Shown: positions 24,594 to 46,003, numbered from the stretch's first letter. The stretch: DNA of 55,278 nt from a virus (IMGVR_UViG_3300033562_000464:1-55278), one strand, 5' to 3'. Numbers and translations: made by a program. The notes: generated from the letters alone by a model not told the origin.

Positions 24594-24779
24594 TTATTTT
24601 TTACCCTCATAATCAAGGTATTTTTCATATTGTGCCCACAAGTAAGAAAACTGCTTGTCGGCTTGTTTTACACCACGTTTCACAACATCTGATTCATAAG
24701 TGTAATTATTATCCCTTTTAACACACCATTCCTCAAAACTTAACAAGTTGTCACCCACAATTAATTCCCTTCCGCACAA
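24594..24779 (-). CDS. Small hypothetical protein
   Basis: About 60-aa ORF overlapping the end of holA. Confidence 0.5.
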   Translation of the reverse strand: MCGRELIVGDNLLSFEEWCVKRDNNYTYESDVVKRGVKQADKQFSYLWAQYEKYLDYEGKK

Positions 24780-25669
24780 ACTAAAATATCTATCATTAAT
24801 TTTTCCATTGCCACGTTTTGGTCAATTTTACCTGTTTTTATCCCAAACTCAGCGCCTTGCACCAACCTCAAAATCATCAACAATACGTTTAAAGAATAGT
24901 AGTTTGTCTTTTCCCTTATGTGTTTTATATGGTAAACATTCAAGCCCGTCTTTGCAGCAATATCCTTGTCGGTATTTTGTGCCATACCTTGCACCAACAA
25001 TATATTTCTAAAATTAGTATAAAACAAGCTTATTATCTTTATAGGGCTTTCACCACCAGCCATCAATTCTTTAAAGCAATCAAATGCAGGTAACGCTTGT
25101 CCCGATGTTACATAGCCCACCATATCAAACACCACATCTTCTGGTCTTGGTATTACTAATTCATAAACTATATCAAAAGTTATTTCATCCAACCGTTTTA
25201 ATTTGTCAATTTCTAATTCAACCCGACTAAAATCACCGTTGCTATTTCTTACAACTTTACTAGCCAATTGATTTGAAATATTTAGCTCTTTGGTTACAAG
25301 CCCCACCAATTGCCACTCGGTTAACTTGTCGAAGCTTATTATATAATCTTTCCACTGCTTGTAAAACTTGCCACGCCCGTCAATATTTGTATAACATAAT
25401 ATAACAATATTATCACCAATTAAACTAATTAAATCAATGTCTTGCTTTACCAAATCATCATCGTCCCTTATCATGTAGGTTGATTTTTGTTTAAATAACA
25501 TGACGCCAGTAAGTTTTGGTATTATTTCGGTAAACTTGTTCGCCTTAACAACATTAGAGCCTATTTTACGAGCATATAAATCCATCATACCACGCTCATC
25601 CCCAACAAATATATATAAATTTCGAAGTTTGCCACCACTTAACTCCCTTTTTAAACCAGCTATGTCCAT
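24761..25669 (-). CDS. holA: Clamp loader delta subunit
   Basis: LYIFVGDE, MLF clamp-wrench motif, ELEIDKL, VFDMV, GESPIKII, IKTG. Confidence 0.85.
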   Translation of the reverse strand: MDIAGLKRELSGGKLRNLYIFVGDERGMMDLYARKIGSNVVKANKFTEIIPKLTGVMLFKQKSTYMIRDDDDLVKQDIDLISLIGDNIVILCYTNIDGRGKFYKQWKDYIISFDKLTEWQLVGLVTKELNISNQLASKVVRNSNGDFSRVELEIDKLKRLDEITFDIVYELVIPRPEDVVFDMVGYVTSGQALPAFDCFKELMAGGESPIKIISLFYTNFRNILLVQGMAQNTDKDIAAKTGLNVYHIKHIREKTNYYSLNVLLMILRLVQGAEFGIKTGKIDQNVAMEKLMIDILVCAEGN

Positions 25670-26479
25670 TTAATTTTCCCTCCAAATTTTTCGAAGATCG
25701 AGCACAAAAATGTCAAGTAGTGAAAGTTTGTTTACCCCTTTTATTTTAAACATGCCACGGTATTTATACACTAATCGCATTGTTTCAACGTACCGAAACG
25801 CCTTATCCTTTGGCACATCTTTCATTTTAGCATTGCACACATAAAGCACCATGTTAAAAAATAATCCAGGTGGGTAACCACTATCATCATCTTTTAGTTT
25901 GATTTGTTTGTAAATATTTAAACTGTTCAACGTGCTAACCTTACCGATATTATCTATTACCTTATTTGTAAAATCATATAACTCTTTTACCCCAACATCC
26001 TCAAGAACTTTAATCTCGCCCATGTTGGTGACGCACCCAAGCATTAAATCATCATCCGTGAATTGTTTTAGCTCGTTTTGTGTATAGGTGCCCATCCTAA
26101 ATATTTTTCCTCTGCTTTGTATAGTTGGCAATAGGTTTTCAACATCCTCAACACCTAAAACAACATAACAGTTTTTCGGTGGTTCCTCAGTCAATTTTAA
26201 TAATGCGTTTTCGGCTTGTGGGGTTAACTCATCCGCCCCCTTTAAGTAATAAATCATTTCACTACTTAATTTGTTTGCCCCGCTAATAATACCACGTATG
26301 TCATCAACTTTTAGGCTTTCGGGTTGTGTTACTTGTGCATTGATTTTATTTGCAATATATTCGACCAACATGCTTCTGCCCGAGCCAGCCCAACCAACAA
26401 CCATAATAAATTGTGGAAACCTTTCGGTCTCCACTAGTTCGGTGATGTGTTTTTTTAGTTCTTCCTGCCCTACAAACAC
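25670..26479 (-). CDS. holB: Clamp loader delta-prime subunit
   Basis: Degenerate Walker A (GWAGSGRS), AENALLKLTEEPP, LLPTIQSR. Confidence 0.88.
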   Translation of the reverse strand: MFVGQEELKKHITELVETERFPQFIMVVGWAGSGRSMLVEYIANKINAQVTQPESLKVDDIRGIISGANKLSSEMIYYLKGADELTPQAENALLKLTEEPPKNCYVVLGVEDVENLLPTIQSRGKIFRMGTYTQNELKQFTDDDLMLGCVTNMGEIKVLEDVGVKELYDFTNKVIDNIGKVSTLNSLNIYKQIKLKDDDSGYPPGLFFNMVLYVCNAKMKDVPKDKAFRYVETMRLVYKYRGMFKIKGVNKLSLLDIFVLDLRKIWREN

Positions 26480-27534
26480 AATAACAACACCTCGCCTTCA
26501 ATAATTGGTTTTACATTGTTTTCCCACTTAATTTTCGCACTTAGCTCAATAAATGATTTTAGTACTTCTTGAAATAGGCTCATTTCTAGTTGTATGTAGT
26601 TTTGTAAATCAGCGTCATACATTTGGGGTATCGCTATGTAATCAAACACATCTATTTCGGGGTTAATTAGCAATTTATACTTCATAATATCAAGTACAAA
26701 ATTAGTGTATGATTTAACAAACTGCTTTAAATCTTTGCCCTCGGAGTGCTGCAATTCAATCAACATAATAGCACCAGCACCATTGCCATCAATTATCATA
26801 TCTGTCAAATTAAAAAACACATCATAATCAACCGCCCCAAGTATGCCAATAATGTCATCAAGTGTTAAAACTTGACCATAACCTAAACAAGTATCAAGCA
26901 GTGTTATGGCATTTCGCATCCCACCATCTGCAATTTTTGCAATATATTCAATTGCATCTAGAGCAATATCAAAACCTGGTTCGTCTTTTGCGGACGCTTC
27001 TGGTGCAAGTGCATCTTCCTCGCCCCTAATAATATACTGCAACCTACCAATTATTTCATGTGTGCTTAACCGCTTAAAATCAAACCGTTGAACCCTACTT
27101 ATGATTGTGGCTGGTATTTTTTGTGGGTCGGTTGTGCAAAACATAAATATTGTATTTAGTGGTGGTTCTTCCAATACTTTAAGCATTGCATTCCATGCCC
27201 CTATTGATAACATGTGACACTCATCAATAATGTAAACCTTATTTTCGGCATCCATTGACTTAAATTTACAATTATCAATAATTACACGGACATTATCTAC
27301 CCCGTTATTACTTGCACCATCAATTTCAATGGGCTTTCCTTTGCCTTTGTTTATGTCATGGGCAAATATTCTTGCTGACGTTGTTTTGCCCGTACCAGCC
27401 CCACCCGTAAAAAGATAAGCTTGTTTTGTTTCACCCGTTTCAAGTTGGTTCATTAATATTGTTTTTATGTGCCCCTGACCAACTACCTCGTTAAAATGTT
27501 TTGGTCGATACTTACTTGCTAAATTTTCTGACAT
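26470..27534 (-). CDS. dnaX: Clamp loader gamma/tau ATPase (gamma-length)
   Basis: KYRPKHFNEVVGQ, GAGTGKTT, IEIDGASN, IIDECHML, LEEPP, TIISR, GGMRNA. Confidence 0.93.
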   Translation of the reverse strand: MSENLASKYRPKHFNEVVGQGHIKTILMNQLETGETKQAYLFTGGAGTGKTTSARIFAHDINKGKGKPIEIDGASNNGVDNVRVIIDNCKFKSMDAENKVYIIDECHMLSIGAWNAMLKVLEEPPLNTIFMFCTTDPQKIPATIISRVQRFDFKRLSTHEIIGRLQYIIRGEEDALAPEASAKDEPGFDIALDAIEYIAKIADGGMRNAITLLDTCLGYGQVLTLDDIIGILGAVDYDVFFNLTDMIIDGNGAGAIMLIELQHSEGKDLKQFVKSYTNFVLDIMKYKLLINPEIDVFDYIAIPQMYDADLQNYIQLEMSLFQEVLKSFIELSAKIKWENNVKPIIEGEVLLLCL

Positions 27535-28480: not shown

Positions 28481-28902
28481 TATCTCGCCTTTCCTAACCC
28501 CACAACATGTTCTGCTCGATGTAATATCCAATCTGTTTTTAATGGCAAATGATGCCCTGTTGTTCCATCCCACCCAATGAATACCTCGTGGAAAATAACC
28601 CGTTCGGCTATTGATGGATATTTAGCTTGCAAATCTACTAATTCCATAGCCAACTCATCAAATTTAGCATCACTTATTAAATTCTTATTTAACTCATAGT
28701 ATATGCAACTATGTATCAACATGTGATGTCTTCTCATTAAAATTAAAGTGGCTATATCATATTCGCTATCACTAAATAATGTCATGTCTTGCCTTTTATT
28801 TTCCAATGATTTAATAATACTATCAACCTTTTTTACGGGTGCCTGTTTTGGTGCAGGTGGCTTTGTTGGTTTACTAAATAATGTTTGCTGTATTGTAATC
28901 AC
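28480..28902 (-). CDS. Stand-alone NAD-dependent DNA ligase domain Ia-like protein
   Basis: HSCIYYE...ISDAKFDEL..EL..LQAKYP matches the LigA Ia motif. No adenylation domain. N-terminal QQTLF. Confidence 0.75.
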   Translation of the reverse strand: MITIQQTLFSKPTKPPAPKQAPVKKVDSIIKSLENKRQDMTLFSDSEYDIATLILMRRHHMLIHSCIYYELNKNLISDAKFDELAMELVDLQAKYPSIAERVIFHEVFIGWDGTTGHHLPLKTDWILHRAEHVVGLGKAR

Positions 28903-28909
28903 CTCCAAC

Positions 28910-28949
28910 TAATATATAATAAAAAACACCCACTTTTAAAGTAGGTGTC
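28910..28949 (-). promoter_or_regulatory. Class II promoter overlapping a terminator hairpin
   Basis: CTTTAA-N17-TATATATTA within GACACCTACTT-TAA-AAGTGGGTGTT-TTTT. Confidence 0.7.
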
Positions 28950-28960
28950 AAATATTTATT

Positions 28961-29092
28961 TTAGCCAAATAATAAAAGTGTAATTGTCAAAAACCCCCAC
29001 AATAAAGCAACCCCAACCACGCCTTTAATAATTAAACATGCTTTATCAATTGCTCTAGGAAACAGTTCATGTAACATTTCAAAAAAATTCAT
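28961..29092 (-). CDS. Small membrane protein
   Basis: Start MNFFEML, hydrophobic C-terminus. Confidence 0.55.
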   Translation of the reverse strand: MNFFEMLHELFPRAIDKACLIIKGVVGVALLWGFLTITLLLFG

Positions 29093-29679
29093 TATATAGC
29101 CTCCTTTTCCTCTATTGCACTTTTTATAATCCAACCAACCCACTTTATATCAGCCATCTTATTTTTTAGTTCTTCCATGCTTTCGGCTAATTCTTCTTCG
29201 CTATTAAATGGGCTAATGTGAAAATGGTTTCCACATTCTGGTCCTATCCCATAATGCAAGCTCACTGGGTGTGTCAATGTTCTACCACATTTCATACATA
29301 TTGAACTCGGCATCGGTTTCGCAAATAGTGCCATTTTAACCATTCCTTTTGTTTCATCTAAAATGTTACCAACCATAACTCTCATCGGCATCGGCACACC
29401 ATTGTTTTTTTGGTCATTAAATTCCCAACTCTTTGTCATGTATTGCCTTACCTTAATTCTGTATGTTATTGTGTCAAGTTGGCTTTTGTCTTGGGTGTTA
29501 TCCTGTGTTTTTATTGGTTGGTTGGGCATTTGCACCGCCCGTTCTGGTGCTTTTTTAAAGTTAAGTACTATTTTTACATCACCAGCAAAACTTTTGAGTG
29601 CTTTGTATGCCTCAGCACTATTATTATATACTACATCATTCACCTTTAAAGGCTTGTCCCAATTTATTAAATTTAGCAT
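29092..29679 (-). CDS. DUF6011-like zinc-finger protein
   Basis: CMKCGRTLTHPVS..YGIGPEC. Confidence 0.75.
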   Translation of the reverse strand: MLNLINWDKPLKVNDVVYNNSAEAYKALKSFAGDVKIVLNFKKAPERAVQMPNQPIKTQDNTQDKSQLDTITYRIKVRQYMTKSWEFNDQKNNGVPMPMRVMVGNILDETKGMVKMALFAKPMPSSICMKCGRTLTHPVSLHYGIGPECGNHFHISPFNSEEELAESMEELKNKMADIKWVGWIIKSAIEEKEAI

Positions 29680-29721
29680 AATTTAAACCTCCTTTTTTGG
29701 GGATACCCCGTGTATGATTAT

Positions 29722-29750
29722 ATTATATAATAATATATATCACTTTGCAA
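29722..29750 (-). promoter_or_regulatory. Sigma-A promoter, class Ib
   Basis: TTGCAA-N17-TATAAT, downstream of the recA terminator hairpin (29773-29792). Confidence 0.75.
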
Positions 29751-29805
29751 GCTTTTTTTTTTGAAAATAATTGCAAGGGCTTTCGCCCCTGCTTTTATTA
29801 TAATA

Positions 29806-30984
29806 CTAACTCATTAATAATACTAACTCATTAATATGGTTTAACAATTCATCAAACACTACCGTTTCCTCACGTAAGTAATTGAGCAATTTAGCTCTAC
29901 CTTGAAACTTTAAATCATTTCCATCAGCATCTTGCATAATAACACCATTTTCACAATCTTCCATGATATTAAACCATGAACCGCCTTGTATAATGTAGTC
30001 GTATTTAATAGCCAAATCAACCGTATCTGCAAGCACATCAATCCCATAAGTATAGTTAAGTGTGTAAAAACCAAGTCGCCTATCGGGTTTGCTGACTTTT
30101 GTTTTGGCAATGTCAACCATTACCAAATTCCCCGATGGTGTAGATGAATCTTTCATTTTTAGTTCCTCATTGTTTTCATCTATATATGTACCTTTTCTAA
30201 ATAACATTCTTAATCCATATAAATGTTTTAAAGCTCGACCACCTGGAGTATTATATAAATTATATGGGTTATTTATATCATCCCTAACTTGGTTAATTAA
30301 TATCAATGCAGTTTGGTGCCTTGTTAACAATGGGGGTATCCTTGAACTAAATATTGCCATCGGTCCCGAAACGCCTGCATAAGATTTCTTTTCCATGCTT
30401 TCATCATATATTGCTTGAGGCACAAGCATCGGCACACTATCAAGAACAATAAGTGTCACGTTCCCCGTCTTAACCGCATCAATAATTATTTGCAACACTT
30501 GCTCGGCTGTTTGGTCATTTGGTCTCAGTAGATAAAGCATATCGGTATCAACACCGTTAAGTCTTGCCCACTCTTCATCAAAAGTATTTTCCGCATCAAT
30601 ATAAACAACTTGTCTCGGTCCGTTTTCTTGTAGTTCATTAAGTTGTGTCTTGCATTGTTGCAGCTTTTTAACATCGCTTTTATTGTTCTTTGATTCCATT
30701 ATTTCAATTTGTGTTATAAGTTCTTGCTCGGTTTCATCGAACTCATTTTGTGCCTTAATTTGTGCTTGTTTTGTTATATCAATTGCTGAGGTTGTTTTGC
30801 CACTACCCTCTGGACCAAAAAATTCTGTTACCTTACCAACGGGAACTCCCCCATAAGTTAAGTAGTTCATTCTTGGTGAGCTAAATTGTACCTTGTCAAC
30901 TTTTAGCCTTGATGTACCTTTTACCAATATTTGGTCTTTGTATTTTTTGTTGATGTCACCCATCAACACGTCTAAATTATTCAT
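29806..30984 (-). CDS. recA: RecA/UvsX-like recombinase
   Basis: GPEGSGKTT, YIDAE, VLDSV, INQVR, TPGGRALK. Start reassigned to MNNLDV. Confidence 0.93.
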   Translation of the reverse strand: MNNLDVLMGDINKKYKDQILVKGTSRLKVDKVQFSSPRMNYLTYGGVPVGKVTEFFGPEGSGKTTSAIDITKQAQIKAQNEFDETEQELITQIEIMESKNNKSDVKKLQQCKTQLNELQENGPRQVVYIDAENTFDEEWARLNGVDTDMLYLLRPNDQTAEQVLQIIIDAVKTGNVTLIVLDSVPMLVPQAIYDESMEKKSYAGVSGPMAIFSSRIPPLLTRHQTALILINQVRDDINNPYNLYNTPGGRALKHLYGLRMLFRKGTYIDENNEELKMKDSSTPSGNLVMVDIAKTKVSKPDRRLGFYTLNYTYGIDVLADTVDLAIKYDYIIQGGSWFNIMEDCENGVIMQDADGNDLKFQGRAKLLNYLREETVVFDELLNHINELVLLMS

Positions 30985-31513
30985 TAATTGTTTCCTCCTC
31001 TGGGTAATTAATAGTAGTGTAAAATTCTTGTTTTCCAAAATTCAACGCTTCTTGGTGTGTTGGAAACCATATATCAATTTTAATGGTATCATCATCTACC
31101 CTTTTTATGGCACCACCTCTATCCCATGCTGTAAATGTGCCCCAACCATCTAGGTAAATAGTTGAGCCAAATGGGATATCTTTTGGTACTGCAATTGTCC
31201 ACCATTCTGCAATTTTACCGCTTGCTGTATTACCATCACTTTTTCCACAACACTTCGAGCAACTACAATAGGCTGTAGCAATGATTTTCACCCCTTTAAA
31301 AGCATTTTCATCAATAGCTTGTGGTAAATGTGCCGCAACCTCTTTTTCAACCATTGCAACCGTTGCTGGGTTGTATGTTGTTTGTTGGTATGCCACACTA
31401 ATTATCTTGCTTATCTTTTGTTCTTCTTTTGCTATTGGTGCATTTATACTAATACAACTTAATCCAATAATCACACCACAAGCAACAAAACACGAAAACA
31501 ACTTGAATTTCAT
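30977..31513 (-). CDS. Exported 3D-domain (MltA-like) cell-wall protein
   Basis: Signal/TM segment, then ATAY...TASG...TIAV...IPFGS...DRGGAIK...IDIW. Confidence 0.85.
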   Translation of the reverse strand: MKFKLFSCFVACGVIIGLSCISINAPIAKEEQKISKIISVAYQQTTYNPATVAMVEKEVAAHLPQAIDENAFKGVKIIATAYCSCSKCCGKSDGNTASGKIAEWWTIAVPKDIPFGSTIYLDGWGTFTAWDRGGAIKRVDDDTIKIDIWFPTHQEALNFGKQEFYTTINYPEEETINE

Positions 31514-31535
31514 AACATCACCACCTTTCCACTAC

Positions 31536-31580
31536 CAATATATAGTTAAAAGATGGCAGTATTAAAGTGCCATCTTTTAA
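31536..31580 (-). promoter_or_regulatory. Class II promoter with its -35 in a hairpin loop
   Basis: CTTTAA-N17-TATATATTG. 13-bp inverted repeat TTAAAAGATGGCA/TGCCATCTTTTAA. Confidence 0.7.
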
Positions 31581-31593
31581 AATATTGATATTT

Positions 31594-32103
31594 TTAATTT
31601 ACCCCAGTTGTTCCATGTCCGCCCCTATTAGAATTTCCAAGTACTTCAACTTCAATAAAATCAATTGGCTTCATTTTTAGCATTGTTCTAAATTGTGCAA
31701 CCCTATCAAATCTTCCGATTTTACCATTCCTTGTTGCGTAAAATGGCACAAACCACTCATCACCATCACCGCAAAATGAGTTATCAACCACACCGACACT
31801 ATTTGTTTGTATTAAACCACAATTTTTAAATAGACTTCCTCTTGGTGCAATATGTGCTTCATATCCCTTTGGAAGTTCCATTGCAAACCCTAGAAACACC
31901 CTAATAAAATCTCCTGCTTTGTACTCCGTAACCAAACCACCATCAAAATCGGCACCCTTATCAGCAAAGTGCCAAGCTTGTATAACACCATTAACTTCAA
32001 CCCGACTTGCTCTTACATCAATCCAATCCCCCTTTTCAATTGCTGTTAATTCAGGCATTCTAGTTTGAAAATACTTTACTTTGATACTAATCATATTAAT
32101 CAT
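31594..32103 (-). CDS. dut: Trimeric dUTPase
   Basis: WIDVRA, PRGS, GVVDNSFCG, DRVAQF, RGGHGTTG. Confidence 0.92.
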   Translation of the reverse strand: MINMISIKVKYFQTRMPELTAIEKGDWIDVRASRVEVNGVIQAWHFADKGADFDGGLVTEYKAGDFIRVFLGFAMELPKGYEAHIAPRGSLFKNCGLIQTNSVGVVDNSFCGDGDEWFVPFYATRNGKIGRFDRVAQFRTMLKMKPIDFIEVEVLGNSNRGGHGTTGVN

Positions 32104-32680
32104 TTACCCTTTCACGAAATTTAGTTTTTCTATCGTCGTCCCATTCACGTCTTGTGTTCCCCGTTGTGCGATTGCCTTCCATCCTATTAATGTCAAGTTC
32201 GGATATACGCTTTGACAACACTTTTCTACTTGCTTGACAAAGTTGGTCACATACATCAACTTTAGCCTTTAATTTTCGGTATGCCCTGTCAAATGCCACT
32301 TCAACCAAATACTCATTCAACGTATTGTTTTCGGCATAACTTTCTTTATCCCTAATTGTTCCATCGATTGCCATTACAGCCTCGTTAAAGGCTTCCATTT
32401 TAATCGCCTTTGCGTTATCTTTTTGTATACCCAAGTTTTCAAGCCCACTAACTGCAAAATACATAAACACAGGTATCCTTATTGTTATACTTTCAATTTC
32501 ATGGTCATCGAGCACATCTTTGTTATCTAACCATTCTTTTATTTGGTTAATAAATTCATCCAAATCTTTTCCAAACTTTGATACTAGTTGCTCAACTATT
32601 TTTTCAAGGGGTTTACTATTTTCCTCGGCTCGCTTTTTAATACCACGCATTTTATTTTCATCTGCTGTGTTCGCCACCAT
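32096..32680 (-). CDS. Helical hypothetical protein of the replication block
   Basis: Coiled-coil-like ORF coupled between recU and dut. Confidence 0.65.
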   Translation of the reverse strand: MVANTADENKMRGIKKRAEENSKPLEKIVEQLVSKFGKDLDEFINQIKEWLDNKDVLDDHEIESITIRIPVFMYFAVSGLENLGIQKDNAKAIKMEAFNEAVMAIDGTIRDKESYAENNTLNEYLVEVAFDRAYRKLKAKVDVCDQLCQASRKVLSKRISELDINRMEGNRTTGNTRREWDDDRKTKFRERVND

Positions 32681-33167
32681 CAACACCCCCATTTTTAGCA
32701 TATTTATTAACTAGATTAAACCACTCTTTATTGATATAATAATCCCATGTTACACGTTTCTTTCTACCAGTCAACTCAACACCATTTTCACAAGCTAAAT
32801 CAATGTGCATACTTTTTTCACCTTGTTTCTTCAAATCCTCAAACACAGTGATATTTACAAAATACGTTTTATCGTGCTCGCTAAAATGTACTAATATTCC
32901 AGCTATTGCACCATTATTTCTTTTCGCTTTTTCAAGTAACCCCGTCCATTGATGTTCGGTTATATTGATAAATGGTAGCCTGTTTCCTTTGTGTGATTTT
33001 AGCTCTAAATAATAAACATGTGGGTAATGGTAAACAATAAAATCACATATATTCTTAATTCCAGCATATCCACCAACATTATCATACAGGCGGTCAATGC
33101 TAACATCTTCCGCCTGTAATGCACTTTTTTTAAAATCTTCTTCAAATTGCTTTCCAGTGTATGCCAT
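32658..33167 (-). CDS. recU: RecU-like Holliday junction resolvase
   Basis: GKQFEE, CDF...LELKS, F.NITEHQ motifs. Confidence 0.82.
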   Translation of the reverse strand: MAYTGKQFEEDFKKSALQAEDVSIDRLYDNVGGYAGIKNICDFIVYHYPHVYYLELKSHKGNRLPFINITEHQWTGLLEKAKRNNGAIAGILVHFSEHDKTYFVNITVFEDLKKQGEKSMHIDLACENGVELTGRKKRVTWDYYINKEWFNLVNKYAKNGGVDGGEHSR

Positions 33168-33170
33168 ATG

Positions 33171-33953
33171 TCACCATTTACCGCACTCGGTTTTATAATT
33201 ACAATAAGTGCAATCCTTCTTGTTATCACTTTTTGGTGGTATGCCCCCACCATTAACATATGAATTGCATGTTTCAATCTTATTAACTACGAGGTCCTCT
33301 TTCATTTGTTCGGTAATATCAAATTGAAAAACTTTCAAATCGCATATATCCCGATTTTCATAAAGGAAGATAATACTATTAATGTTTAAACAGGTTGAGT
33401 ATGCTGCTACTTGCACCTTGTGGTCTTCAAATGGTTGAACTTGCCCTTGCCATTTGTAAAAACTTTCTGTCTTAATTTCAATGATATAATACTTTCCTCG
33501 GTATTTAACAATACCATCACACATAAAGCTCATGTTTAGTATATCATTGTAACATTTTGTTTCCATGCCATTCACAGAAACAACCGTTGTCCCAGAAGGT
33601 TTTCTTCTTCTTAGATACTCTTTTACACTAATCCATTCACAATCAAAACCATGTTTTTTCATTTTTGATATTGCATATTGGAGCTGCTCATGCCTTGAAG
33701 AACCGCTTGATGTTATACCAATATTAGTATATGACCTAGTTGTATCATCAGATTTAGCCCCCGTAACTTGAAAATACATATTACGCATACAACCCCCCAA
33801 TGAAGAGGGTTTGTATGTTTTGGATGCTTCACGACGTTCGTCATCGTTTTCAATTGTTTTGCATAATTCCATTAAAAACATGTCATGAGGTGGTTTGTTA
33901 TTGGTAACATTTTTGACCAACTTTGCGAGGTTTGCCAGATTACTCTTCGCCAT
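33171..33953 (-). CDS. Cas4-like PD-(D/E)xK exonuclease
   Basis: PSSLGGC, CDGI...IEIKT, QVAAY, C-terminal CTYCNYKTEC. Start reassigned to MAKSNL. Confidence 0.85.
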   Translation of the reverse strand: MAKSNLANLAKLVKNVTNNKPPHDMFLMELCKTIENDDERREASKTYKPSSLGGCMRNMYFQVTGAKSDDTTRSYTNIGITSSGSSRHEQLQYAISKMKKHGFDCEWISVKEYLRRRKPSGTTVVSVNGMETKCYNDILNMSFMCDGIVKYRGKYYIIEIKTESFYKWQGQVQPFEDHKVQVAAYSTCLNINSIIFLYENRDICDLKVFQFDITEQMKEDLVVNKIETCNSYVNGGGIPPKSDNKKDCTYCNYKTECGKW

Positions 33954-35046
33954 CAACTTCACCGCCTTCGGTTTCGGTTGTTTGTTCCTCGGCTTCTTCG
34001 TCTTCACGCATTCTGCAAAGTATTTGATTAACTTCGCCATCAACAAGTTTAATTGCAATATCATTTCCATAATGTAATTCAAAACTATCGGATTGTATTG
34101 CTGATATTTGGTCTTGCAACAAAACGATATTCAATTGGCATTGAAAATCCGTAAAATTTTCACTTTCTAAATATGGGGTTAATTCGGCACCACCATCATT
34201 TAAGTCACTAAATAGTAGACCATCTTTTGTAAAATACAATTGTATACCGTTTTTGTCATATGGGCTAACAAATAATCCCAATCTATCCAAAATACTAGCA
34301 ATTGCTGGCTTTGATATTTTACATTTACTTGGGTATTCAAATTCAAGGATGTGGGACAAATCTGGGTAATCTGTCAACCCCTCAAGCTCCGCCCCAAATA
34401 TTACAAGGTTGTCGGTTGTAAATAATAATTTTCCGTCATTGTGTTGCACTTTAATATCTTCGCTTGTTACACTGTTCATCAACACCGCTAGTTCTTGGGT
34501 TAACAACACGGGCTCATCAAATAGTTTAACATTGTTCATGCACATCTTAACCCCATCCGTTGTTGTAGCCATATCCCCAACATAATAACCCGTAAGGCAA
34601 GGCATAGACATGTCAGTTGCAAGTGATGCTTTATTAATAGCGAAAACACTTTTTAACACCTTTGATTTAATAACAACTTCTGGGGTTTTTGTGCTAAATG
34701 TAAATGTTGGGAACTTTTCGTTCAATAAAGGTATTTTATAATTCCCGTTCCCTTTTACCACAACAACATCGTCACCCTTTTCAAACTTAACAATTCCCGA
34801 TGTTGTTTTGCTTAATAACTTAATAAATTGGTCTGCTGGTACAACCATTTCTCCCGATTTACCAACCACATTATTTTCAATTGATGTAATGTAGTTATTT
34901 ATGTCTGTTGCGGTAATTCTTAAAGATTTTTTGTCGAGCTTGATGTGTATAAAGCTTGTAATTGGTAGGAGTTTGTTGTTGCCTACCCCCTTAGTGATTT
35001 TTGTTAACATTTCATTTAACTTCGATGTTTTAATTTCAAATTGCAT
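33940..35046 (-). CDS. dnaN: DNA polymerase III beta sliding clamp
   Basis: 368 aa. LPITS..I, ITATD, FP, P.LTG, TTDG, YPD, ILDR landmarks. Confidence 0.85.
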   Translation of the reverse strand: MQFEIKTSKLNEMLTKITKGVGNNKLLPITSFIHIKLDKKSLRITATDINNYITSIENNVVGKSGEMVVPADQFIKLLSKTTSGIVKFEKGDDVVVVKGNGNYKIPLLNEKFPTFTFSTKTPEVVIKSKVLKSVFAINKASLATDMSMPCLTGYYVGDMATTTDGVKMCMNNVKLFDEPVLLTQELAVLMNSVTSEDIKVQHNDGKLLFTTDNLVIFGAELEGLTDYPDLSHILEFEYPSKCKISKPAIASILDRLGLFVSPYDKNGIQLYFTKDGLLFSDLNDGGAELTPYLESENFTDFQCQLNIVLLQDQISAIQSDSFELHYGNDIAIKLVDGEVNQILCRMREDEEAEEQTTETEGGEVDGEE

Positions 35047-35746
35047 TTTGATTTCCTCCGCTAAGTTTATCCATTAAGTTGTTAAATCTTTCCAACTCGT
35101 CAGGTGAATTTGGTTCATAATTAGATACTATTAATGTTAACATGCTTTTATCAACACCATTGAGCTTATTTGTGTCAACCCAACCATCAACCTCAATGTT
35201 AAAAATCTTTTGTGCTGATAAATAATCACACAATGCTATAAATACTTGGTATGGTTTTTCTGGTAACGGTAAAACAACATTACTTTTATTATTTGTGTTC
35301 CAGTTTGACATGTGGCTTTCAACACCTTGCAATATAGCCTCAACTTGTGATGGTTTTAATATATCATAAACTTCTTTGTTGCCACGTAGATGTTCTGATA
35401 ATACCAATGGATGTTCATGTACTGTGTACTTGCTACCCTTTAATCCACATTTACAACCATCATGTAACATTATTGCTGAGCGGATACAATCCTTTTGAAA
35501 ATCATTGTAATCTCCAAGCGATGTAAATCTAAATAACTCCTCAGCAATTTTTAAAGCAGTTTTGGTGTGCCTTACCAACCCGCCCTCACCCAACGATGAT
35601 ACTGGGTGATATTTCCCAGTTGTGCTTGCAGGTATTACCCAAAAATAATCGGGCAATAATTCAAGAGCCCCAATTGTAAAACTACGCACATTATCATCTT
35701 TTATTAGTGCCAACTGTTTTTCAAAAATTTCAACTTCTTTTTTCAA
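35036..35746 (-). CDS. HD-domain phosphohydrolase (YhaM-like HD)
   Basis: PAS..GKYH, GGLVRHT, LHDGCK, SHM, CDYLS. Confidence 0.85.
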   Translation of the reverse strand: MKKEVEIFEKQLALIKDDNVRSFTIGALELLPDYFWVIPASTTGKYHPVSSLGEGGLVRHTKTALKIAEELFRFTSLGDYNDFQKDCIRSAIMLHDGCKCGLKGSKYTVHEHPLVLSEHLRGNKEVYDILKPSQVEAILQGVESHMSNWNTNNKSNVVLPLPEKPYQVFIALCDYLSAQKIFNIEVDGWVDTNKLNGVDKSMLTLIVSNYEPNSPDELERFNNLMDKLSGGNQNAI

Positions 35747-35774
35747 GTTTGTGCCTCCTTTTAATATTTGTAAT

Positions 35775-35806
35775 TAATATATAACAAAATATTGTATATG
35801 TTAAAG
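35775..35806 (-). promoter_or_regulatory. Class II promoter
   Basis: CTTTAA-N17-TATATATTA. Confidence 0.7.
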
Positions 35807-36304
35807 CCCCATGTCCATTATTTTAAAAAGGCCCCTAACCAAATTTGAAAGAGGTGCATCATCCGACCAAGAAGTTGCTGCGTTAAGGTTTGTCATAGCA
35901 ACGAATTTAATGTCGGGGTATGCCATATTTAAACATAGTATAGTTTCACCACTCCCAGTCGGCACTGCATAAATTGGGTCGGTTAAATCCCCCAATCTTT
36001 CACGAAACGCATTACCAATATCAACCATGAGGTGAAGTGGCAAGTGCCCACTTGTTGCATCAAATTCATTTTTAAATACTTTTTTTATTTCTGATGGTGT
36101 CCACCACTTATTCGCAACAAGCACCCCACTAGGGCTGATATCTATTGTATCAACCCCTGCTTCAATTAACTTTATGCTGGCATTGCCACAACTAAAACAA
36201 ACTGCCCTTTTAATGCCTGCATTCTTCATATAACGTTTTATCACCATTGACCTTATTTCTTTGGCATCAAACCTGAGTATTAATAACCCCTTAATAGTAT
36301 TCAT
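35801..36304 (-). CDS. Minimal fold-type-II (TrpB/CysK-like) PLP-dependent enzyme
   Basis: AKEIR (candidate Schiff-base Lys), FSCGNAS, VPTGSGET glycine loop. 167 aa. Starts 1 nt after the MTase stop. Confidence 0.65.
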   Translation of the reverse strand: MNTIKGLLILRFDAKEIRSMVIKRYMKNAGIKRAVCFSCGNASIKLIEAGVDTIDISPSGVLVANKWWTPSEIKKVFKNEFDATSGHLPLHLMVDIGNAFRERLGDLTDPIYAVPTGSGETILCLNMAYPDIKFVAMTNLNAATSWSDDAPLSNLVRGLFKIMDMGL

Positions 36305-36305
36305 T

Positions 36306-37262
36306 TTAATCCTCCTCTTCAACCTTAAATATTTTTCCTATTTGTTTAATATCACCCTTAAAAAACACTAGCACATTTTGATGTATTTTAACAATTTTTC
36401 TATTGTTCATGCTATTTTGAGCTCTTATTGATGCGGTTCCAATAGTATTGAGTAAAATTATTTCATTGTAATACTTAAACCCAATCTCTTTCATTAAGGT
36501 AATATTATCGCCAACAAAGTTTCTATATTCACCAGTTTTTTTATTTCTTATTTCGCCAACCTTTACCACCAAAAATCTGTTATCACTTAATTTTTCATAG
36601 CATTGCTGAAATATGTTTTTGTATTGTGCCATAAATTCCTCATACGTACCAACCGCACTCATATCTTCTTTGCTATAAATTTCTAAGTCGTAATATGGGG
36701 GGCTTGTAAAACATAAATCAAACCCACTGTCCTTGATAATCTTACTTAGGTTATTACTATCACCACAATAATATTCAATGTCTTTAAAACGTTTTGTCTT
36801 TTCTAAGTTGAGGTCAACTTGGTCTTGCCTAAACTCTACTGCGGTATAAGGGTATCCCAAAAATCCAGCAACAACCCCTTTAGTTTGCTCGCCACCAAAT
36901 GGGTCAAGTATTCTACCCCCTTCAGGGCAAAACCACCTATAAATTATTTCCGCCAATACTGGGTCAAAGTTGCTTGTGCCCTCATTAATATTATTAAATA
37001 ATCCTTGTTTACCAGAGTTTTCACCAAAATCACCAAATAACTTTCCGTTCTTTTTCCCACCGCCAACGGTGCCAAACTCGCCATTTCTTGTTTCACTTAA
37101 ATTTCCTGTAACTTTTAGCCAACGTCTTTTTCTGTCTTGCCAGTAACCTTGCTTTGTGTCCAATACACTAAACGGGGGTACTATAAACTTGTTCAGCAAC
37201 CCGAACGTCTCTTCCTTAATTTCAAAAAGCATTCCTTGTTTAACCTTTAATTTATCTTCCAT
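36306..37262 (-). CDS. SAM-dependent DNA amino-methyltransferase-fold protein
   Basis: FDPVLAE..YRWF, ILDPFGGEQTKG (variant motif I), FTSPPY (motif IV), HQNVLVF.KG. Confidence 0.85.
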   Translation of the reverse strand: MEDKLKVKQGMLFEIKEETFGLLNKFIVPPFSVLDTKQGYWQDRKRRWLKVTGNLSETRNGEFGTVGGGKKNGKLFGDFGENSGKQGLFNNINEGTSNFDPVLAEIIYRWFCPEGGRILDPFGGEQTKGVVAGFLGYPYTAVEFRQDQVDLNLEKTKRFKDIEYYCGDSNNLSKIIKDSGFDLCFTSPPYYDLEIYSKEDMSAVGTYEEFMAQYKNIFQQCYEKLSDNRFLVVKVGEIRNKKTGEYRNFVGDNITLMKEIGFKYYNEIILLNTIGTASIRAQNSMNNRKIVKIHQNVLVFFKGDIKQIGKIFKVEEED

Positions 37263-37285
37263 GAAGACCTCCTAGTTTATTTGAG

Positions 37286-37317
37286 TGACGTATAGTTTAT
37301 TATTGCTTTTATTAAAG
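37286..37317 (-). promoter_or_regulatory. Class II promoter variant for the MTase-PLP pair
   Basis: CTTTAA-N17-TATACGTCA. Confidence 0.5.
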
Positions 37318-37322
37318 TAACA

Positions 37323-37652
37323 TCAATGATTTTTGTTCATGCCAAGAATATCACCAGTGTTTCTTCCCACCGCAACACTTCTATCATCCCACAATTCAAT
37401 CATTTTAAAATCTTTGATATTGGTTACAGGTAAAACACATCCAATATTATCAGCACACCACGCTTCTATAATTTTTATTTGTTCTGCCCCGTTGCCTACC
37501 CTTGCTGTAAATATGCGGACATCCTTACCACAATATATCCACTCCTTCACACGTTGAACCATTGGTTTTATTGGTTCACCAATATGCTCCATACCCTTCC
37601 AACCATCATAAAAAGCCAATGTCCCATCTAAATCAACACCAATCCATCCCAT
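37323..37652 (-). CDS. HAD-family phosphatase (PNKP phosphatase-like)
   Basis: VDLDGTL, IFTAR, TNIK, WDDR. Start reassigned to MGWIGV. Confidence 0.85.
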   Translation of the reverse strand: MGWIGVDLDGTLAFYDGWKGMEHIGEPIKPMVQRVKEWIYCGKDVRIFTARVGNGAEQIKIIEAWCADNIGCVLPVTNIKDFKMIELWDDRSVAVGRNTGDILGMNKNH

Positions 37653-37678
37653 ATTTCTAATCTCCTTTTCAATATTAT

Positions 37679-40048
37679 TTAACATGGTATAGCTTCACCA
37701 TACCAACGGTCTGTCACTTCTAAATCACATTTCATAGGAACAGTTATCCTGTCCGCACAACTGCCAATCATAAGTTTCTCAACCCTTGCTTTAACTTGTT
37801 TAGCATACTCAATTGGGCACTCACCTATAATTTCGTCATGCACCGTCATCAACATACGGTATCCCCAATTTTTTAATTTTAAGTCGTTTGCTAATACAAT
37901 CATAGCTTTTTTTGTAATATCGGCTGCACTACCTTGTATTATACTATTAACACATTGTCTCTCGGCTTGTGCAATAAAACCACCATTATCCTTAATGTGT
38001 ATTCCCTCAGCCTTTGCCTTTGCCTTGATAGCGTTCTTTTCTTTTACCCCATATGTTTTATTTAACATTGCAGTATAGGATTGCTCTAAATAATCGGGCA
38101 CCGCTTCATCACTATCAATCATTGTAAATGAAAACTTTGGTAATTGCATATCGGGCAATCGGCACTTCCTACCATAAGCGGTTTCAACAAAACCATATAC
38201 ACGAGCATGCTCTTGACTATCATCAATAAACTTTTTAACTTTTGGAAACTTTTCAAATAATGTGTCAATTATGCCTTGCGCTTCTTTTTTACTTATGCCA
38301 AGGTCAACACCGATATTTTTTGCCCCCTTACCGTACATAATACCAAGAACAATCGCTTTAATTTTATCACGTCGTTTTTTACCCTCGGGGTTTTTTGTTC
38401 CATCTGGTCTAAACTCTTTACATTCCGAAGCTGGCACATGAAAAACAATACTTGCTATCCATGAATAAATATCCGTTCCTTTTGCATACTCAGCAATCAT
38501 GGTTTCGTCTTGTGACATAAATGCCAATATTCTAGGTTCTTGTTGACTAAAGTCACCCCCTACCAACACATATTTTCCAGATAATTTATTTTCCCTTACT
38601 AATTGCCTAACCCTAAATTCCTCAACCGATACAACCGTTGACTTCGATATTAAATAACTAAAATCACTTGCTGTGAACATCTTTCTAACATCCTTGTTTT
38701 TACTTGGTATGTTTTGCAAATTTGGGTCACTACTGCTATATCTTCCCGTTCTAGCCCCGTACTGGTTAAAGCTTGCATGAATTTTTTTAGTCCGCTTATT
38801 TACAACTAGTGGAAGCTTATCTATGTAAGTACTTAAAAGTTTGGCAAGTGTTCTATAATTTAATATATCTCTTGCTAGTGGTTCATCAAACGTTTCAAGT
38901 ATCTCCTCACCCGTTCCCCGTGGCTTTTCAGAATCTGGGCTTTTAAGCCCCATTATATCATAGAGTATTATGCCTAGTTGAACATTACTATTTATATTAA
39001 TGGGGTTGTCTAGTTTATTGTACACGCTAGGGCTTTTCCTACTTAATTCCTTTAGCTTATCACCTAGTTTACTAATGTGACCATGTACAATTGCTTCCGC
39101 CTTTATTAATTCATTCGTATATTTTTTACTTAGCCCAACCGAATAAGGCGCATCAATATTAACCCCATTTAATTCCATTTGTGCGGTGACTTTAATTACT
39201 GGTAATTCTATATTTTCATATAACCACGCAACTCTATCAAGGTCTTTGGCAACACACAATTCACCATCTAATGATAAAAACTTTTCTTGAAACTTGTACA
39301 ATAAATATGTCATGTATGGGTCTTTTGCACCATATAAAAAAGCTGTTTCAATTGGAACTTTTGTAAATGGCATCCCCTCAAATAATGTACTATAGGAAGC
39401 AAGTTCACTATCTTTTTTGCCCGATTTTACAACATACTTCTCATACAAAAATTTTAAATTATGAGCCTCGGCTTCATTAAGTAAATAACCAGCAATTAAA
39501 GTATCCCAAAATATTCGTATATTTTCAATGTTGACATCTAACTGCCATTTAATTACATGTAGGTCGAATTTTGCATTGTGAAGTATTACTTTTGTATCGC
39601 CTAAATTATTAAGCTCTTTTGTAATTATTTCAATTGGTATTTGCTCGTCTAATTTTTGCCCAGTAATATAGTTGATGTGGTTAATTGGCACATAGGCTGG
39701 TTTCATATTAGGTGTATAAAAACATATACCTGCAATCATATCATCGATAGTATTTAGTCCATCAGTTTCTGTATCAAGTGCAAGTTCGCCATTTTTCTTC
39801 GCCATTTCAATATAGTGTTTAAATTCTTCAATGTCTTTAATACAAATAAGGGAGCCGTCATCTTCCCCAATCATTCGCCTAACCAATTCTGTTATAGCTT
39901 GTATTTTTCCCATTATGCCACTTCCGCCCTTTACGGTTATGACCCCGTCTTTTTTAGGCTTGTTTTTTACTTTGTGCAAAGCGAGCAAATCCTCAGCTTT
40001 TGTTGTTGGTTTCCTTTCAGGAAATTTAAAAAGTGTGCTTTGTGCCAT
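37679..40048 (-). CDS. polA: Family A DNA polymerase with 3'-5' exonuclease
   Basis: DTET, HNAKFD, TGRYSSSDPNLQNIP, DFSQQE, KAIVLGIMYG, VHDE. Confidence 0.96.
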   Translation of the reverse strand: MAQSTLFKFPERKPTTKAEDLLALHKVKNKPKKDGVITVKGGSGIMGKIQAITELVRRMIGEDDGSLICIKDIEEFKHYIEMAKKNGELALDTETDGLNTIDDMIAGICFYTPNMKPAYVPINHINYITGQKLDEQIPIEIITKELNNLGDTKVILHNAKFDLHVIKWQLDVNIENIRIFWDTLIAGYLLNEAEAHNLKFLYEKYVVKSGKKDSELASYSTLFEGMPFTKVPIETAFLYGAKDPYMTYLLYKFQEKFLSLDGELCVAKDLDRVAWLYENIELPVIKVTAQMELNGVNIDAPYSVGLSKKYTNELIKAEAIVHGHISKLGDKLKELSRKSPSVYNKLDNPININSNVQLGIILYDIMGLKSPDSEKPRGTGEEILETFDEPLARDILNYRTLAKLLSTYIDKLPLVVNKRTKKIHASFNQYGARTGRYSSSDPNLQNIPSKNKDVRKMFTASDFSYLISKSTVVSVEEFRVRQLVRENKLSGKYVLVGGDFSQQEPRILAFMSQDETMIAEYAKGTDIYSWIASIVFHVPASECKEFRPDGTKNPEGKKRRDKIKAIVLGIMYGKGAKNIGVDLGISKKEAQGIIDTLFEKFPKVKKFIDDSQEHARVYGFVETAYGRKCRLPDMQLPKFSFTMIDSDEAVPDYLEQSYTAMLNKTYGVKEKNAIKAKAKAEGIHIKDNGGFIAQAERQCVNSIIQGSAADITKKAMIVLANDLKLKNWGYRMLMTVHDEIIGECPIEYAKQVKARVEKLMIGSCADRITVPMKCDLEVTDRWYGEAIPC

Positions 40049-45035: not shown

Positions 45036-45950
45036 TTAAAACACTTCATCACTAATTTCATTGCTTCGTTGTTGACGTGCCTTTGCTACCGCTACATTAT
45101 CAATACTCTCAACATTTTTTCCTTTTCCACTAACCCCACCCTTTGGCATTTTTTCATTCAAATATGAATTAAATTTAGTGCCAAACAATGTTTCTGGTCT
45201 TAGATACTGTTCCATTTTATCATCGCCTAACCAACTTGCACATTTTACATTAATAACATATTTAAACTGCTCTAATGTGTAGCCGTCTTTAATTCTAGCA
45301 TTAATATGTTTTATAGTAGCCTGTGTTCTAACACTAAAATTTTTATTTGTTTTTGTGTTTAAGTAACTAATAGCATCATTAATTATTTCGTAATTATAGG
45401 CACTAACAAGGACAGGGTCAGTTTTTTTATTAGGTATTAAAGAAGGTTGAGTTGCTTTGGAAGATTCTTTTTCTTTTTTATTAGTATTACTTATATTATT
45501 ACTGATTGTTGGGATTTCTAGCGAACTAGTTTGGGATTTTTCGCCTTCTTGTTCTGGGTTTTCCCCAAACTTGTCACTTATTAATTCAACTAGTGTCGTA
45601 AGGTCATTATTTATTTTATAATGCCCCTTTGCTGGCATTCCAACAACTTTAAATTCAATTAACTTGGCTTCTATTAGTTTTGTTCTTGCGGTGCGTTGTT
45701 GGTCTTCTTTTAGCCCAGTCCAATCGAAAATTCTTTGTGTAGTTGCATAGAAAAAACCGTCATCACCTATTGTATCCTGCCTATAATAATAATGGTTAAA
45801 TTTAAGCAAAGCTTGATAATATATAGTAACATTTATTCCCAATTGCTTGGCTAGACTTACATTATAAATATTAAAGTTATTCCCATTTAAAAGATTGAGC
45901 ATTTGCAAAGATAAATTTTCCATGGACATATTTTTGTTATTTAACGTCAT
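45036..45950 (-). CDS. Replication initiator with conserved phage C-terminal domain (Phg_2220_C-like)
   Basis: N-terminal wHTH-like region. C-terminal YLN..T...ARIKDGYT...YLRPETLFG.KF..YLNE. Confidence 0.85.
   Translation of the reverse strand: MTLNNKNMSMENLSLQMLNLLNGNNFNIYNVSLAKQLGINVTIYYQALLKFNHYYYRQDTIGDDGFFYATTQRIFDWTGLKEDQQRTARTKLIEAKLIEFKVVGMPAKGHYKINNDLTTLVELISDKFGENPEQEGEKSQTSSLEIPTISNNISNTNKKEKESSKATQPSLIPNKKTDPVLVSAYNYEIINDAISYLNTKTNKNFSVRTQATIKHINARIKDGYTLEQFKYVINVKCASWLGDDKMEQYLRPETLFGTKFNSYLNEKMPKGGVSGKGKNVESIDNVAVAKARQQRSNEISDEVF
45509..45574. repeat. Three degenerate 22-bp iterons (putative origin)
   Basis: TTGGGATTTCTAGCGAACTAGT / TTGGGATTTTTCGCCTTCTTGT / TCTGGGTTTTCCCCAAACTTGT, next to an AT-rich tract (45465-45500) inside the initiator gene. 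Confidence 0.6.
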
Positions 45951-46003
45951 TAAATATCCTCCGCTTGGTTTTATAAAAAGGGCTGTCACCAGCCCCCTTA
46001 ATA

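Follow-up and report, generated by a model that had tools for sequence, protein, structure and literature searches.

The viral record IMGVR_UViG_3300033562_000464 (the window, i.e. the whole stretch of 55,278 bases that was analysed) encodes a family A DNA polymerase (PolA), an N6/N4 DNA methyltransferase and a solo Nlig-Ia (a stand-alone version of domain Ia of LigA, which binds NAD+, with the ligase absent), each of which carries a QxxLF peptide near its N-terminus. The same phage encodes its own beta sliding clamp (DnaN) and clamp loader. It is apparent that these motifs exceed chance expectation, that three unrelated protein families have conserved them at their termini and that they track the lineage of phages encoding DnaN. 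Taken together, the sequence data argue, with a probability that we put at about 0.65, that a portable clamp-binding peptide recruits PolA, a DNA-modifying enzyme and Nlig-Ia to the phage beta clamp. The pocket of the bacterial beta clamp docks pentapeptides of the QL[SD]LF type; clamps with multiple clients are textbook knowledge, and E. coli Hda provides an N-terminal example.

The first-pass annotation of the window had proposed that proteins with QxxLF motifs are clients of the phage's own clamp. The three N-terminal peptides that it named, QSTLF in PolA (which begins MAQSTLFKF), QGMLF in the methyltransferase and QQTLF in Nlig-Ia, were all found where it had placed them (Table 1), the last at residues 7–11 of an open reading frame (ORF) with a TTG start. 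All three are situated at the termini, outside the folded domains. Gene identities, here and below, were assigned by Pfam profile matches. Clean Shine–Dalgarno sequences and ATG starts were observed for PolA and the methyltransferase. The start of Nlig-Ia is uncertain: a GGAGG sequence (28906–28902) falls within the ORF that starts with TTG/GTG, and in the public annotation the gene begins two residues after the TTG. Under every start-codon reading, the motif is at most 11 residues from the start.

The 74 window proteins of at least 60 aa on the coding strand contain four QxxLF sequences, three of which fall within the first 13 residues. The fourth, QAYLF in DnaX (27423–27409, within QAYLFTGGAG), represents the Walker A neighbourhood and was for that reason rejected as a docking motif. 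The three proteins with an N-terminal QxxLF compare with a mean of 0.057 expected from 20,000 per-protein shuffles, in which three or more such proteins arose at a frequency of 5e–5. In Clostridium phage phiCTP1, an [LMI]F pair within residues 2–12 was found in only four of 61 coding sequences (CDS), those of PolA, gp50, the methyltransferase and Nlig-Ia; in Clostridium phage phi8074-B1 the figure was one of 64.

By PolA protein, the nearest named relatives of the phage are the Clostridium phages phiCTP1 and vB_CtyS-FA88 (47% identity), followed by Bacillus phage Flasso (42%) and the Streptococcus phages Dp-1 and MS1 (40%). A hydrophobic pair was present in the first 12 residues of every one of the best 120 PolA homologues (44–100% identity), as LF or LW in 32 sequences, MF or IF in 76 and LL, LI or LV in 12. 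These homologues comprise 49 distinct N-termini, nine of which contain Q..L[FW]. The consensus of 20 diverse homologues reads xxxxLFKxPxR, and the basic linker after it is poorly conserved; PolA begins MAQKGLF in Dp-1 and MALFNF in phiCTP1, and has QNSLF at its N-terminus in Flasso.

A search of IMG/VR with the single PolA protein yielded no relative, and an alignment was therefore used as the query instead. Eighty loci were retrieved, in the close clade of which (L003–L032) the PolA N-termini were the same as in the other homologues. A DnaN homologue was detected in the flanks of 18 of the loci in this clade, and those lacking one include contigs that end soon after PolA. When phage records were searched by tblastn with the window DnaN, matches were obtained in only eight of 50,697, and seven of the eight belong to the phiCTP1/FA88, Flasso and Dp-1/MS1 groups, which are also the best PolA matches. 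The PolA of phi8074-B1 (36% identity, 707 aa) begins at the exonuclease domain and has no tail; no DnaN match was obtained in that phage, and no loader is annotated in the stretch examined. The comparison of orthologues from clamp-encoding and clamp-lacking phages, which had been suggested along with the first-pass annotation, thus favours the hydrophobic pair, which is conserved and tracks the DnaN lineages, but the Q is only partly kept and there are exceptions.

The methyltransferase of the window is a short form. Most homologues are approximately 430 aa in length and possess an N-terminal ParB domain (PF02195), with which the long forms inspected begin. Sixteen short forms were present among the 120 homologues listed, and an N-terminal [LM]F tail was found in 12 of them. 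These tails (MSLFEM, MNLFDM, MSLFEVP, MKNRLFDF and KVKQNKLF among them) read much like the PolA N-termini MALFEVP and MALFNVP. In the 75 IMG/VR loci of the methyltransferase family, the LF tail was restricted to phiCTP1 and one further locus (L097 and L099, respectively), both of which also have PolA, DnaN and DnaX. At the remaining 73 loci the enzyme is either fused to ParB or devoid of a tail, with no DnaN within 10 kb on either side. It follows from this distribution that the clamp lineage has a short LF tail where the methyltransferase family normally has a ParB domain.

The solo Nlig-Ia protein lacks adenylation, OB and BRCT modules. Counterparts of its tail are MNLFS in phiCTP1 gp60, MQKSLF (from an internal Met) in Dp-1 gp16 and MALFDV in a metagenomic protein (P0242). 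An exhaustive search gave 149 further Nlig-Ia representatives, 30 of which have [LM][FW] within residues 2–12, in most cases as MALFxV, MPLF or MQKTLFSKP followed by a Lys/Pro-rich linker. The tail was absent from all five phages without a DnaN match (BaileyBlu, RGL3, Paul, FA67 and phi8074-B1). There is some doubt in the case of phi8074-B1, where an upstream in-frame TTG would give HLTLF; that protein was called tail-less because the annotated TTG has a strong Shine–Dalgarno sequence, GGGGTGA. Among 80 IMG/VR Nlig-Ia loci, DnaN was detected at 14, and only two of the 14 have the extra tail. A second LF element of the window protein, QDMTLF, can be aligned gap-free to KTYELFTG, the cap at the N-terminus of Nlig-Ia proteins that have no tail and come from DnaN/DnaX contigs, and DnaN was found at none of the 46 IMG/VR loci whose Nlig-Ia has neither cap nor tail. 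The relationship between tail and clamp is less clean for Nlig-Ia than for PolA.

The slot that follows PolA is filled not by a methyltransferase but by DpdA, a 7-deazaguanine DNA transglycosylase, in Dp-1, Flasso and many of the IMG/VR relatives. The window has no DpdA, and its methyltransferase is situated in the DpdA slot. Of the 18 DpdA ORFs in the loci, 12 terminate in LF-COOH and one in LW, and another has LF three residues from the end; the C-terminus is QRRLF in Dp-1 gp7 (locus L085, 3793–4728) and QGKLF in Flasso (locus L084, 29314–30210). Because the enzyme in the sister-phage slot usually ends in xLF-COOH, the idea of a modification enzyme that rides the clamp gains support. Six more distant phage DpdA proteins (NP1, RHEph06, CAjan, PaP007, PSTCR7 and VpKK5) also all end in LF. 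In five of the six the gene lies zero to three genes from one annotated as a clamp or beta subunit, as it does in phages of the Queuovirinae type. The clamp status of NP1 and CAjan is that of the depositors' annotation, the NP1 clamp having been missed by Pfam and that of CAjan being below threshold (E value 1.7e–4). No family A polymerase (PF00476) was detected in NP1, RHEph06, CAjan, PaP007 or PSTCR7. The DpdA proteins of Bipper, phiSM and Mufasa8 have no LF, and a ParB-like gene lies beside or two genes away from each. Other xLF-COOH ends observed among the DpdA proteins of clamp-encoding phages (the IMG/VR loci together with L087–L091 and L096) are KRLF, KSLF, QELF and QPGLF.

The presence of DnaN, DnaX, HolB and HolA, which had been read from the sequence alone, was confirmed by Pfam for all four proteins. 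DnaN gave a single match in the record. Its central domain scored 20.9 bits, below the Pfam cut-off of 27, and a profile of 16 phage DnaN proteins matched 29 distinct solved beta-clamp sequences over their full extent, the best being 4tr6 (E value 3.2e–20, positions 1–350). The phage DnaN proteins are only approximately 20–40% identical among the relatives, and the TD of an ATDGHRL-like segment is kept in their consensus. PolA is the sole DNA polymerase found, and no match to Pol III alpha was obtained across the whole record, the completeness of which is estimated at approximately 90%.

Prediction of the complex of DnaN with residues 1–32 of PolA gave scores of 0.50, 0.50 and 0.46, compared with 0.25 for the best of three controls, a result that was rated as weak support. 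The runs share at least 63% of their contacts, with a partner pLDDT of at least 48. The mark used is reached by 58 of 80 solved complexes and by two of 110 mismatched pairs, although scores of 0.60 or less at that mark were obtained for only seven of the 80 solved complexes and for both mismatches; these calibration counts apply only approximately, since custom alignments were used (16 rows for DnaN). Clamp–peptide complexes have already been solved, and likeness to them may contribute to the result. The modelling that had been suggested for the peptides thus placed that of PolA above the controls, but weakly so.

These observations are consistent with the following mechanism. The PolA, methyltransferase and Nlig-Ia peptides would be one portable linear motif, composed of Met, zero to eight residues, often a Q four residues before, L-F and then a basic or Pro-rich linker. 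This motif would most probably dock in the hydrophobic cleft of the phage DnaN, itself loaded by DnaX–HolB–HolA. PolA would be tethered to the clamp as the replicase and would gain processivity, and the methyltransferase would be carried along by clamps on replicating phage DNA, so that modification would be coupled to replication or restricted to newly made phage DNA. The DpdA of the sister phages would ride the clamp likewise by its C-terminal xLF, and Nlig-Ia, an NAD+-binding protein, would also be brought to clamp-loaded DNA. On comparative grounds, the proposal that QxxLF proteins are clients of the phage's own clamp is partly supported, for the conserved tail shared by three families but not for the two other peptides put forward with it. 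In the case of the internal QGLF of the methyltransferase, all 18 aligned homologues, ParB fusions among them, retain the hydrophobic pair, and the Q is not conserved. In the case of QPSLI in the replication initiator, the peptide lies in a non-conserved linker and reads SDSST in gp38 of phiCTP1.

Several findings weigh against the proposed recruitment to the phage clamp. The Q is often lost in orthologues (MALF, MSLF, MGRIGDMF, MKKGLL), many of which match the hydrophobic core only. Looser [LMI][FW] pairs within residues 2–13 are common, being present in 14 of the 74 window proteins, so that only the full motif together with its conservation is distinctive. At 12 of the 14 IMG/VR Nlig-Ia loci where DnaN was detected, the protein has no extra tail and opens straight away with the YELF-type cap, and four of the 18 DpdA proteins are without a terminal LF or LW. 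Cellulophaga phage phiSM has a DnaN (PF00712, E value 6.8e–13), as well as the ParB-like neighbour mentioned above, and its DpdA has no LF; a strict rule, by which DpdA would carry LF in phages with a clamp and in no others, was therefore rejected. Distant PolA proteins of approximately 620 aa start with MTQIPLFQ or MTQDLFK in contigs whose flanks contain no DnaN match, which indicates that family A polymerases can have an N-terminal LF also in phages that do not encode a clamp themselves. The DnaN–PolA peptide prediction is a weak pass only. Finally, the sequences are related by descent, and the counts do not represent independent events.

Some of these findings would also be expected if the tails were clamp-binding motifs directed solely or mainly at the beta clamp of the host, with the phage clamp serving another purpose. 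QxxLF is the general bacterial consensus. The distant PolA proteins with an N-terminal Q..LF and no phage DnaN match in their contigs would fit such a target, and the use of the host clamp by a phage protein, MuC of phage Mu, is described in a published report (PMC12867686). A host target is nevertheless considered unlikely, given that the PolA, methyltransferase and Nlig-Ia tails track the lineages with their own DnaN and are missing from the checked relatives without a DnaN match, and that the phage encodes a complete loader and PolA is the sole polymerase found that its clamp could serve. Slightly less probable again is that the tails bind, in place of the clamp cleft, some other part of the replisome whose genes accompany those of the clamp; the clamp loader, the DnaB helicase and the SSB-like protein are examples. 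Clamp and loader always occur together, so that co-occurrence cannot separate them, and the ELF end of DnaB and DVF end of the SSB-like protein suggest that tail-mediated contacts are in use. The peptides, however, match the beta-clamp consensus with Q at −4 in three of three cases in the window, three of three in Dp-1 and two of two in Flasso, and the structure prediction, if weakly, placed the PolA peptide on DnaN above the controls.

That the tails have no shared partner at all, and are chance hydrophobic N-termini or signals for stability or translation initiation, is very improbable. The frequency of loose N-terminal pairs in the window would be in keeping with it, but the full motif exceeds shuffled expectation, and it is kept across proteins only 44–54% identical while the linkers diverge. 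The LF at the C-terminus of DpdA could not be an N-terminal translation or stability signal, and the methyltransferase tail replaces a ParB domain; the occurrence of the peptide at either terminus and this replacement are the reasons for which the absence of a partner is disfavoured.

Recruitment to the phage clamp, as preferred here, may be compared with known systems. The bacterial beta-clamp motifs are alike in being pentapeptides with Q at −4 and a terminal L-F, placed on a flexible terminus of proteins of DNA metabolism, with several clients per clamp. They differ from the present case in their clients, the putative ones here being a phage replicase of family A, a methyltransferase of the N6/N4 type and a solo Nlig-Ia; in addition, the clamp here is phage-encoded, and many orthologues have xLF only. 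Phage replicases are known to pair with processivity factors: T7 gp5, of family A, uses host thioredoxin, and the C-terminal tail of T4/RB69 gp43, of family B, docks on the trimeric gp45 clamp. The T4 case shares with the present one a terminal peptide on a sliding clamp, whereas in the phage described here a family A polymerase would work with a dimeric clamp of the bacterial type and a loader made up of DnaX, HolA and HolB. Eukaryotic DNMT1 binds PCNA by means of a PIP box, coupling methylation to replication; it too is a DNA methyltransferase on a replication clamp, but the clamp, the motif and the domain of life are different. The literature search yielded no methyltransferase, whether from bacteria or from phages, that carries a clamp-binding motif.

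The Pol I of Mycobacterium tuberculosis, like the PolA described here a family A polymerase, is stated in the pertinent part of a preprint to bind the beta clamp (DnaN) via a clamp-binding motif, 457-QLSLLDD-463 (bioRxiv 10.64898/2026.09.19.751633). As characterized there, that motif is internal, within the Klenow fragment, and restricted to the Mycobacteriales, in a repair or maturation enzyme, whereas the phage motif is at the extreme N-terminus, before the exonuclease, of the only polymerase. Bacterial DpdA, according to the relevant section of PMC10164549, needs DpdB, a ParB-like ATPase modelled with a tunnel wide enough for double-stranded DNA. Both systems would thus involve a DNA-modifying transglycosylase in need of a DNA-associated helper, but the phage xLF-COOH DpdA proteins examined have no adjacent annotated ParB-like gene and are near a clamp gene instead. 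Solo phage Nlig-Ia proteins have been proposed as NAD+ sensors (PMC9503650). The same lone domain, in phages without a ligase catalytic module, is treated there, in passages that do not refer to terminal tails or clamps; in the present study, one subfamily was found to have an MxLF tail and a basic linker.

The main text of the phage DpdA papers examined (supplements excluded) contains none of the words clamp, DnaN or processivity, and no paper linking DpdA to a sliding clamp was found. Nor did the literature search reveal a clamp-binding motif for Nlig-Ia or, at the N-terminus, for a phage family A replicase. Clamp-binding motifs are a known mechanism; the putative phage clients had, as far as the search showed, not been reported.

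A more general proposal, which we offer tentatively and at somewhat less than even odds, is that phage enzymes of DNA modification are generally linked by a swappable module to clamps that encircle the DNA. This module would be either a terminal xLF peptide on a beta clamp (the methyltransferase here, and the DpdA of Dp-1, Flasso and the Queuovirinae-type phages) or a ParB-type, NTP-dependent clamp, whether fused (most homologues of the methyltransferase) or specified by a neighbouring gene (DpdB-like partners of DpdA). In that case, modification across the genome would proceed processively and in step with replication, and the clamp would also recruit Nlig-Ia, linking the replisome to NAD+ status. 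Should the tails indeed bind the clamp, this phage lineage would have a hybrid replisome in which a family A polymerase works on a bacterial-type beta clamp with a DnaX/HolA/HolB loader, a route to processivity other than the thioredoxin of T7. Riding the replication clamp would explain how phage methyltransferases and 7-deazaguanine transglycosylases reach all new phage DNA, and a location at the clamp would give a testable lead for the function of solo Nlig-Ia. For annotation, a terminal xLF tail beside a phage clamp gene would flag clamp clients in metagenomic phages.

The record analysed is the entire virus record, with a G+C content of approximately 35% and with all of its substantial genes on the minus strand; no DNA-level match was obtained when it was searched by megablast against the phage collection. 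The replication module begins with a Phg_2220_C initiator, a DnaC-like loader, DnaB, a Toprim primase, a sigma factor, an SSB-like protein and PolA. PolA is followed by a small HAD-like protein, the methyltransferase, two proteins that are either unknown or of HD type, and then DnaN, and the latter by a Cas4-like exonuclease, RecU, a dUTPase, RecA/UvsX, a DUF6011 protein, the solo Nlig-Ia and a second resolvase-like protein. DnaX, HolB and HolA, adjacent at 27534–24761, end the module. Coordinates of the relevant features are shown in Table 1.

Table 1. Proteins and peptides considered in this study, with positions in the 55,278-base record
Feature	Position	Strand	Details
PolA N-terminal QSTLF	40028..40042	−	Residues 3–7, then Lys/Pro-rich linker up to exonuclease domain at approximately residue 69
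Methyltransferase N-terminal QGMLF	37224..37238	−	Residues 9–13; conserved core begins near residue 22
Nlig-Ia N-terminal QQTLF	28876..28890	−	Followed by Pro/Lys-rich linker; domain spans residues 53–135
PolA, family A DNA polymerase, 3′-5′ exonuclease and polymerase, 789 aa	37679..40048	−	PF00476, 319.2 bits; PF01612, 71.5 bits
N6/N4 DNA methyltransferase, short form without ParB domain, 318 aa	36306..37262	−	PF01555, 50.4 bits (cut-off 26.7)
Solo Nlig-Ia (NAD+-binding domain Ia of LigA, ligase absent), up to 142 aa	28480..28908	−	PF22745, 91.4 bits (cut-off 27), residues 53–135; PHROG 6466
DnaN, bacterial-type beta sliding clamp, 368 aa, proposed docking partner	33940..35046	−	PF00712, 38.9 bits (cut-off 24.4)
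DnaX, clamp-loader ATPase	26470..27534	−	PF13177, 95.6 bits; AAA; DNA_pol3_gamma3
HolB (delta′), clamp-loader subunit	25670..26479	−	PF13177, 65 bits
HolA (delta), clamp-loader subunit	24761..25669	−	PF21694, 72.7 bits (delta C-domain)
Nlig-Ia second LF element, QDMTLF	28774..28791	−	Residues 40–45, immediately ahead of helix 1 in the domain
Methyltransferase internal QGLF, not a lineage-specific motif	36996..37007	−	Residues 86–89
Initiator QPSLI, not supported as a motif	45435..45449	−	Residues 181–185

HolA contains the sequence VMLF (residues 56–59, 25504–25493) in its N-terminal domain, and the same alignment columns read NSLF in phiCTP1 and KGLV in Dp-1. The LF by which E. coli delta contacts the clamp is presumably located in the corresponding N-terminal part, which makes VMLF a candidate for the clamp-opening LF. 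HolA matches the delta subunit of B. subtilis (3zh9) over residues 115–298 only, and VMLF is outside that region.

With regard to the start of Nlig-Ia, an ATA codon (28893–28891) at typical spacing from the GGAGG would give M-QQTLF, comparable to the MQKSLF of Dp-1, which suggests a start that is non-canonical or misplaced. Upstream of the gene, at approximately 28915–28945 on the minus strand, a GC-containing hairpin and T-run (CACCTAC...GTGGGTG TTTTTT) were noted by eye; this looks like an intrinsic terminator between Nlig-Ia and the DUF6011 gene. Seven further solo Nlig-Ia proteins, encoded on other phage contigs (loci L227, L243, L245, L246, L249, L250 and L252), with no DnaN/DnaX match within 10 kb on either side, begin MSL(E/D)xFF, which we take to resemble the hydrophobic half of a PIP box. 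Nlig-Ia may thus be clamp-associated also in phages with other types of clamp.

The methyltransferase has a lineage-specific loop insertion with the sequence KLFGDF (residues 74–79, 37026–37043), shared by only one homologue (P0123), as RCFGDFG. Between the PolA and methyltransferase genes of phiCTP1 is that of gp50 (locus L002, 22315–22926), a Cys-rich protein of 203 aa that starts with MIVDLF and has no Pfam match. This protein may be a fourth clamp client in phiCTP1; a phmmer search detected nothing corresponding to it in the window.

The distant PolA proteins of approximately 620 aa (approximately 25% identity; loci L052, L055, L071, L074–L078, L081 and similar) have MTQ(I/M)PLFQ, MTQDLFK or MQIPLLFKP directly before the exonuclease domain, and these LF starts may represent a host-clamp motif or an unrelated feature. 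The polymerases of CAjan (locus L092, 11684–13669, annotated as 'DNA polymerase B') and VpKK5 (locus L096, 3206–3661, annotated as 'DNA polymerase A') adjoin the clamp gene and start with M..DAIG(F/M)FW(Q/E)D(L/I)P, after which comes a basic linker. This arrangement looks analogous to the PolA tail of the window. No Pfam match was obtained for the CAjan polymerase at an E value of 0.01.

For the initiator (45036–45989), an N-terminal MTALF was considered and rejected, as it requires an upstream GTG start that gp38 of phiCTP1 does not share. This protein ends in ISDEVF, the SSB-like protein (40123–40932) in TGEDVF and DnaB (42956–44263) in EEFQDGTELF. An acidic stretch followed by F also terminates most of the DnaB orthologues and many of the SSB orthologues in loci L001–L034, and thus represents a second class of tail. 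The acidic C-terminal tails of T7 gp4 and gp2.5 contact the T7 polymerase; by analogy, the Lys-rich linker of PolA could be the target of the acidic, terminal-F tails of the phage.

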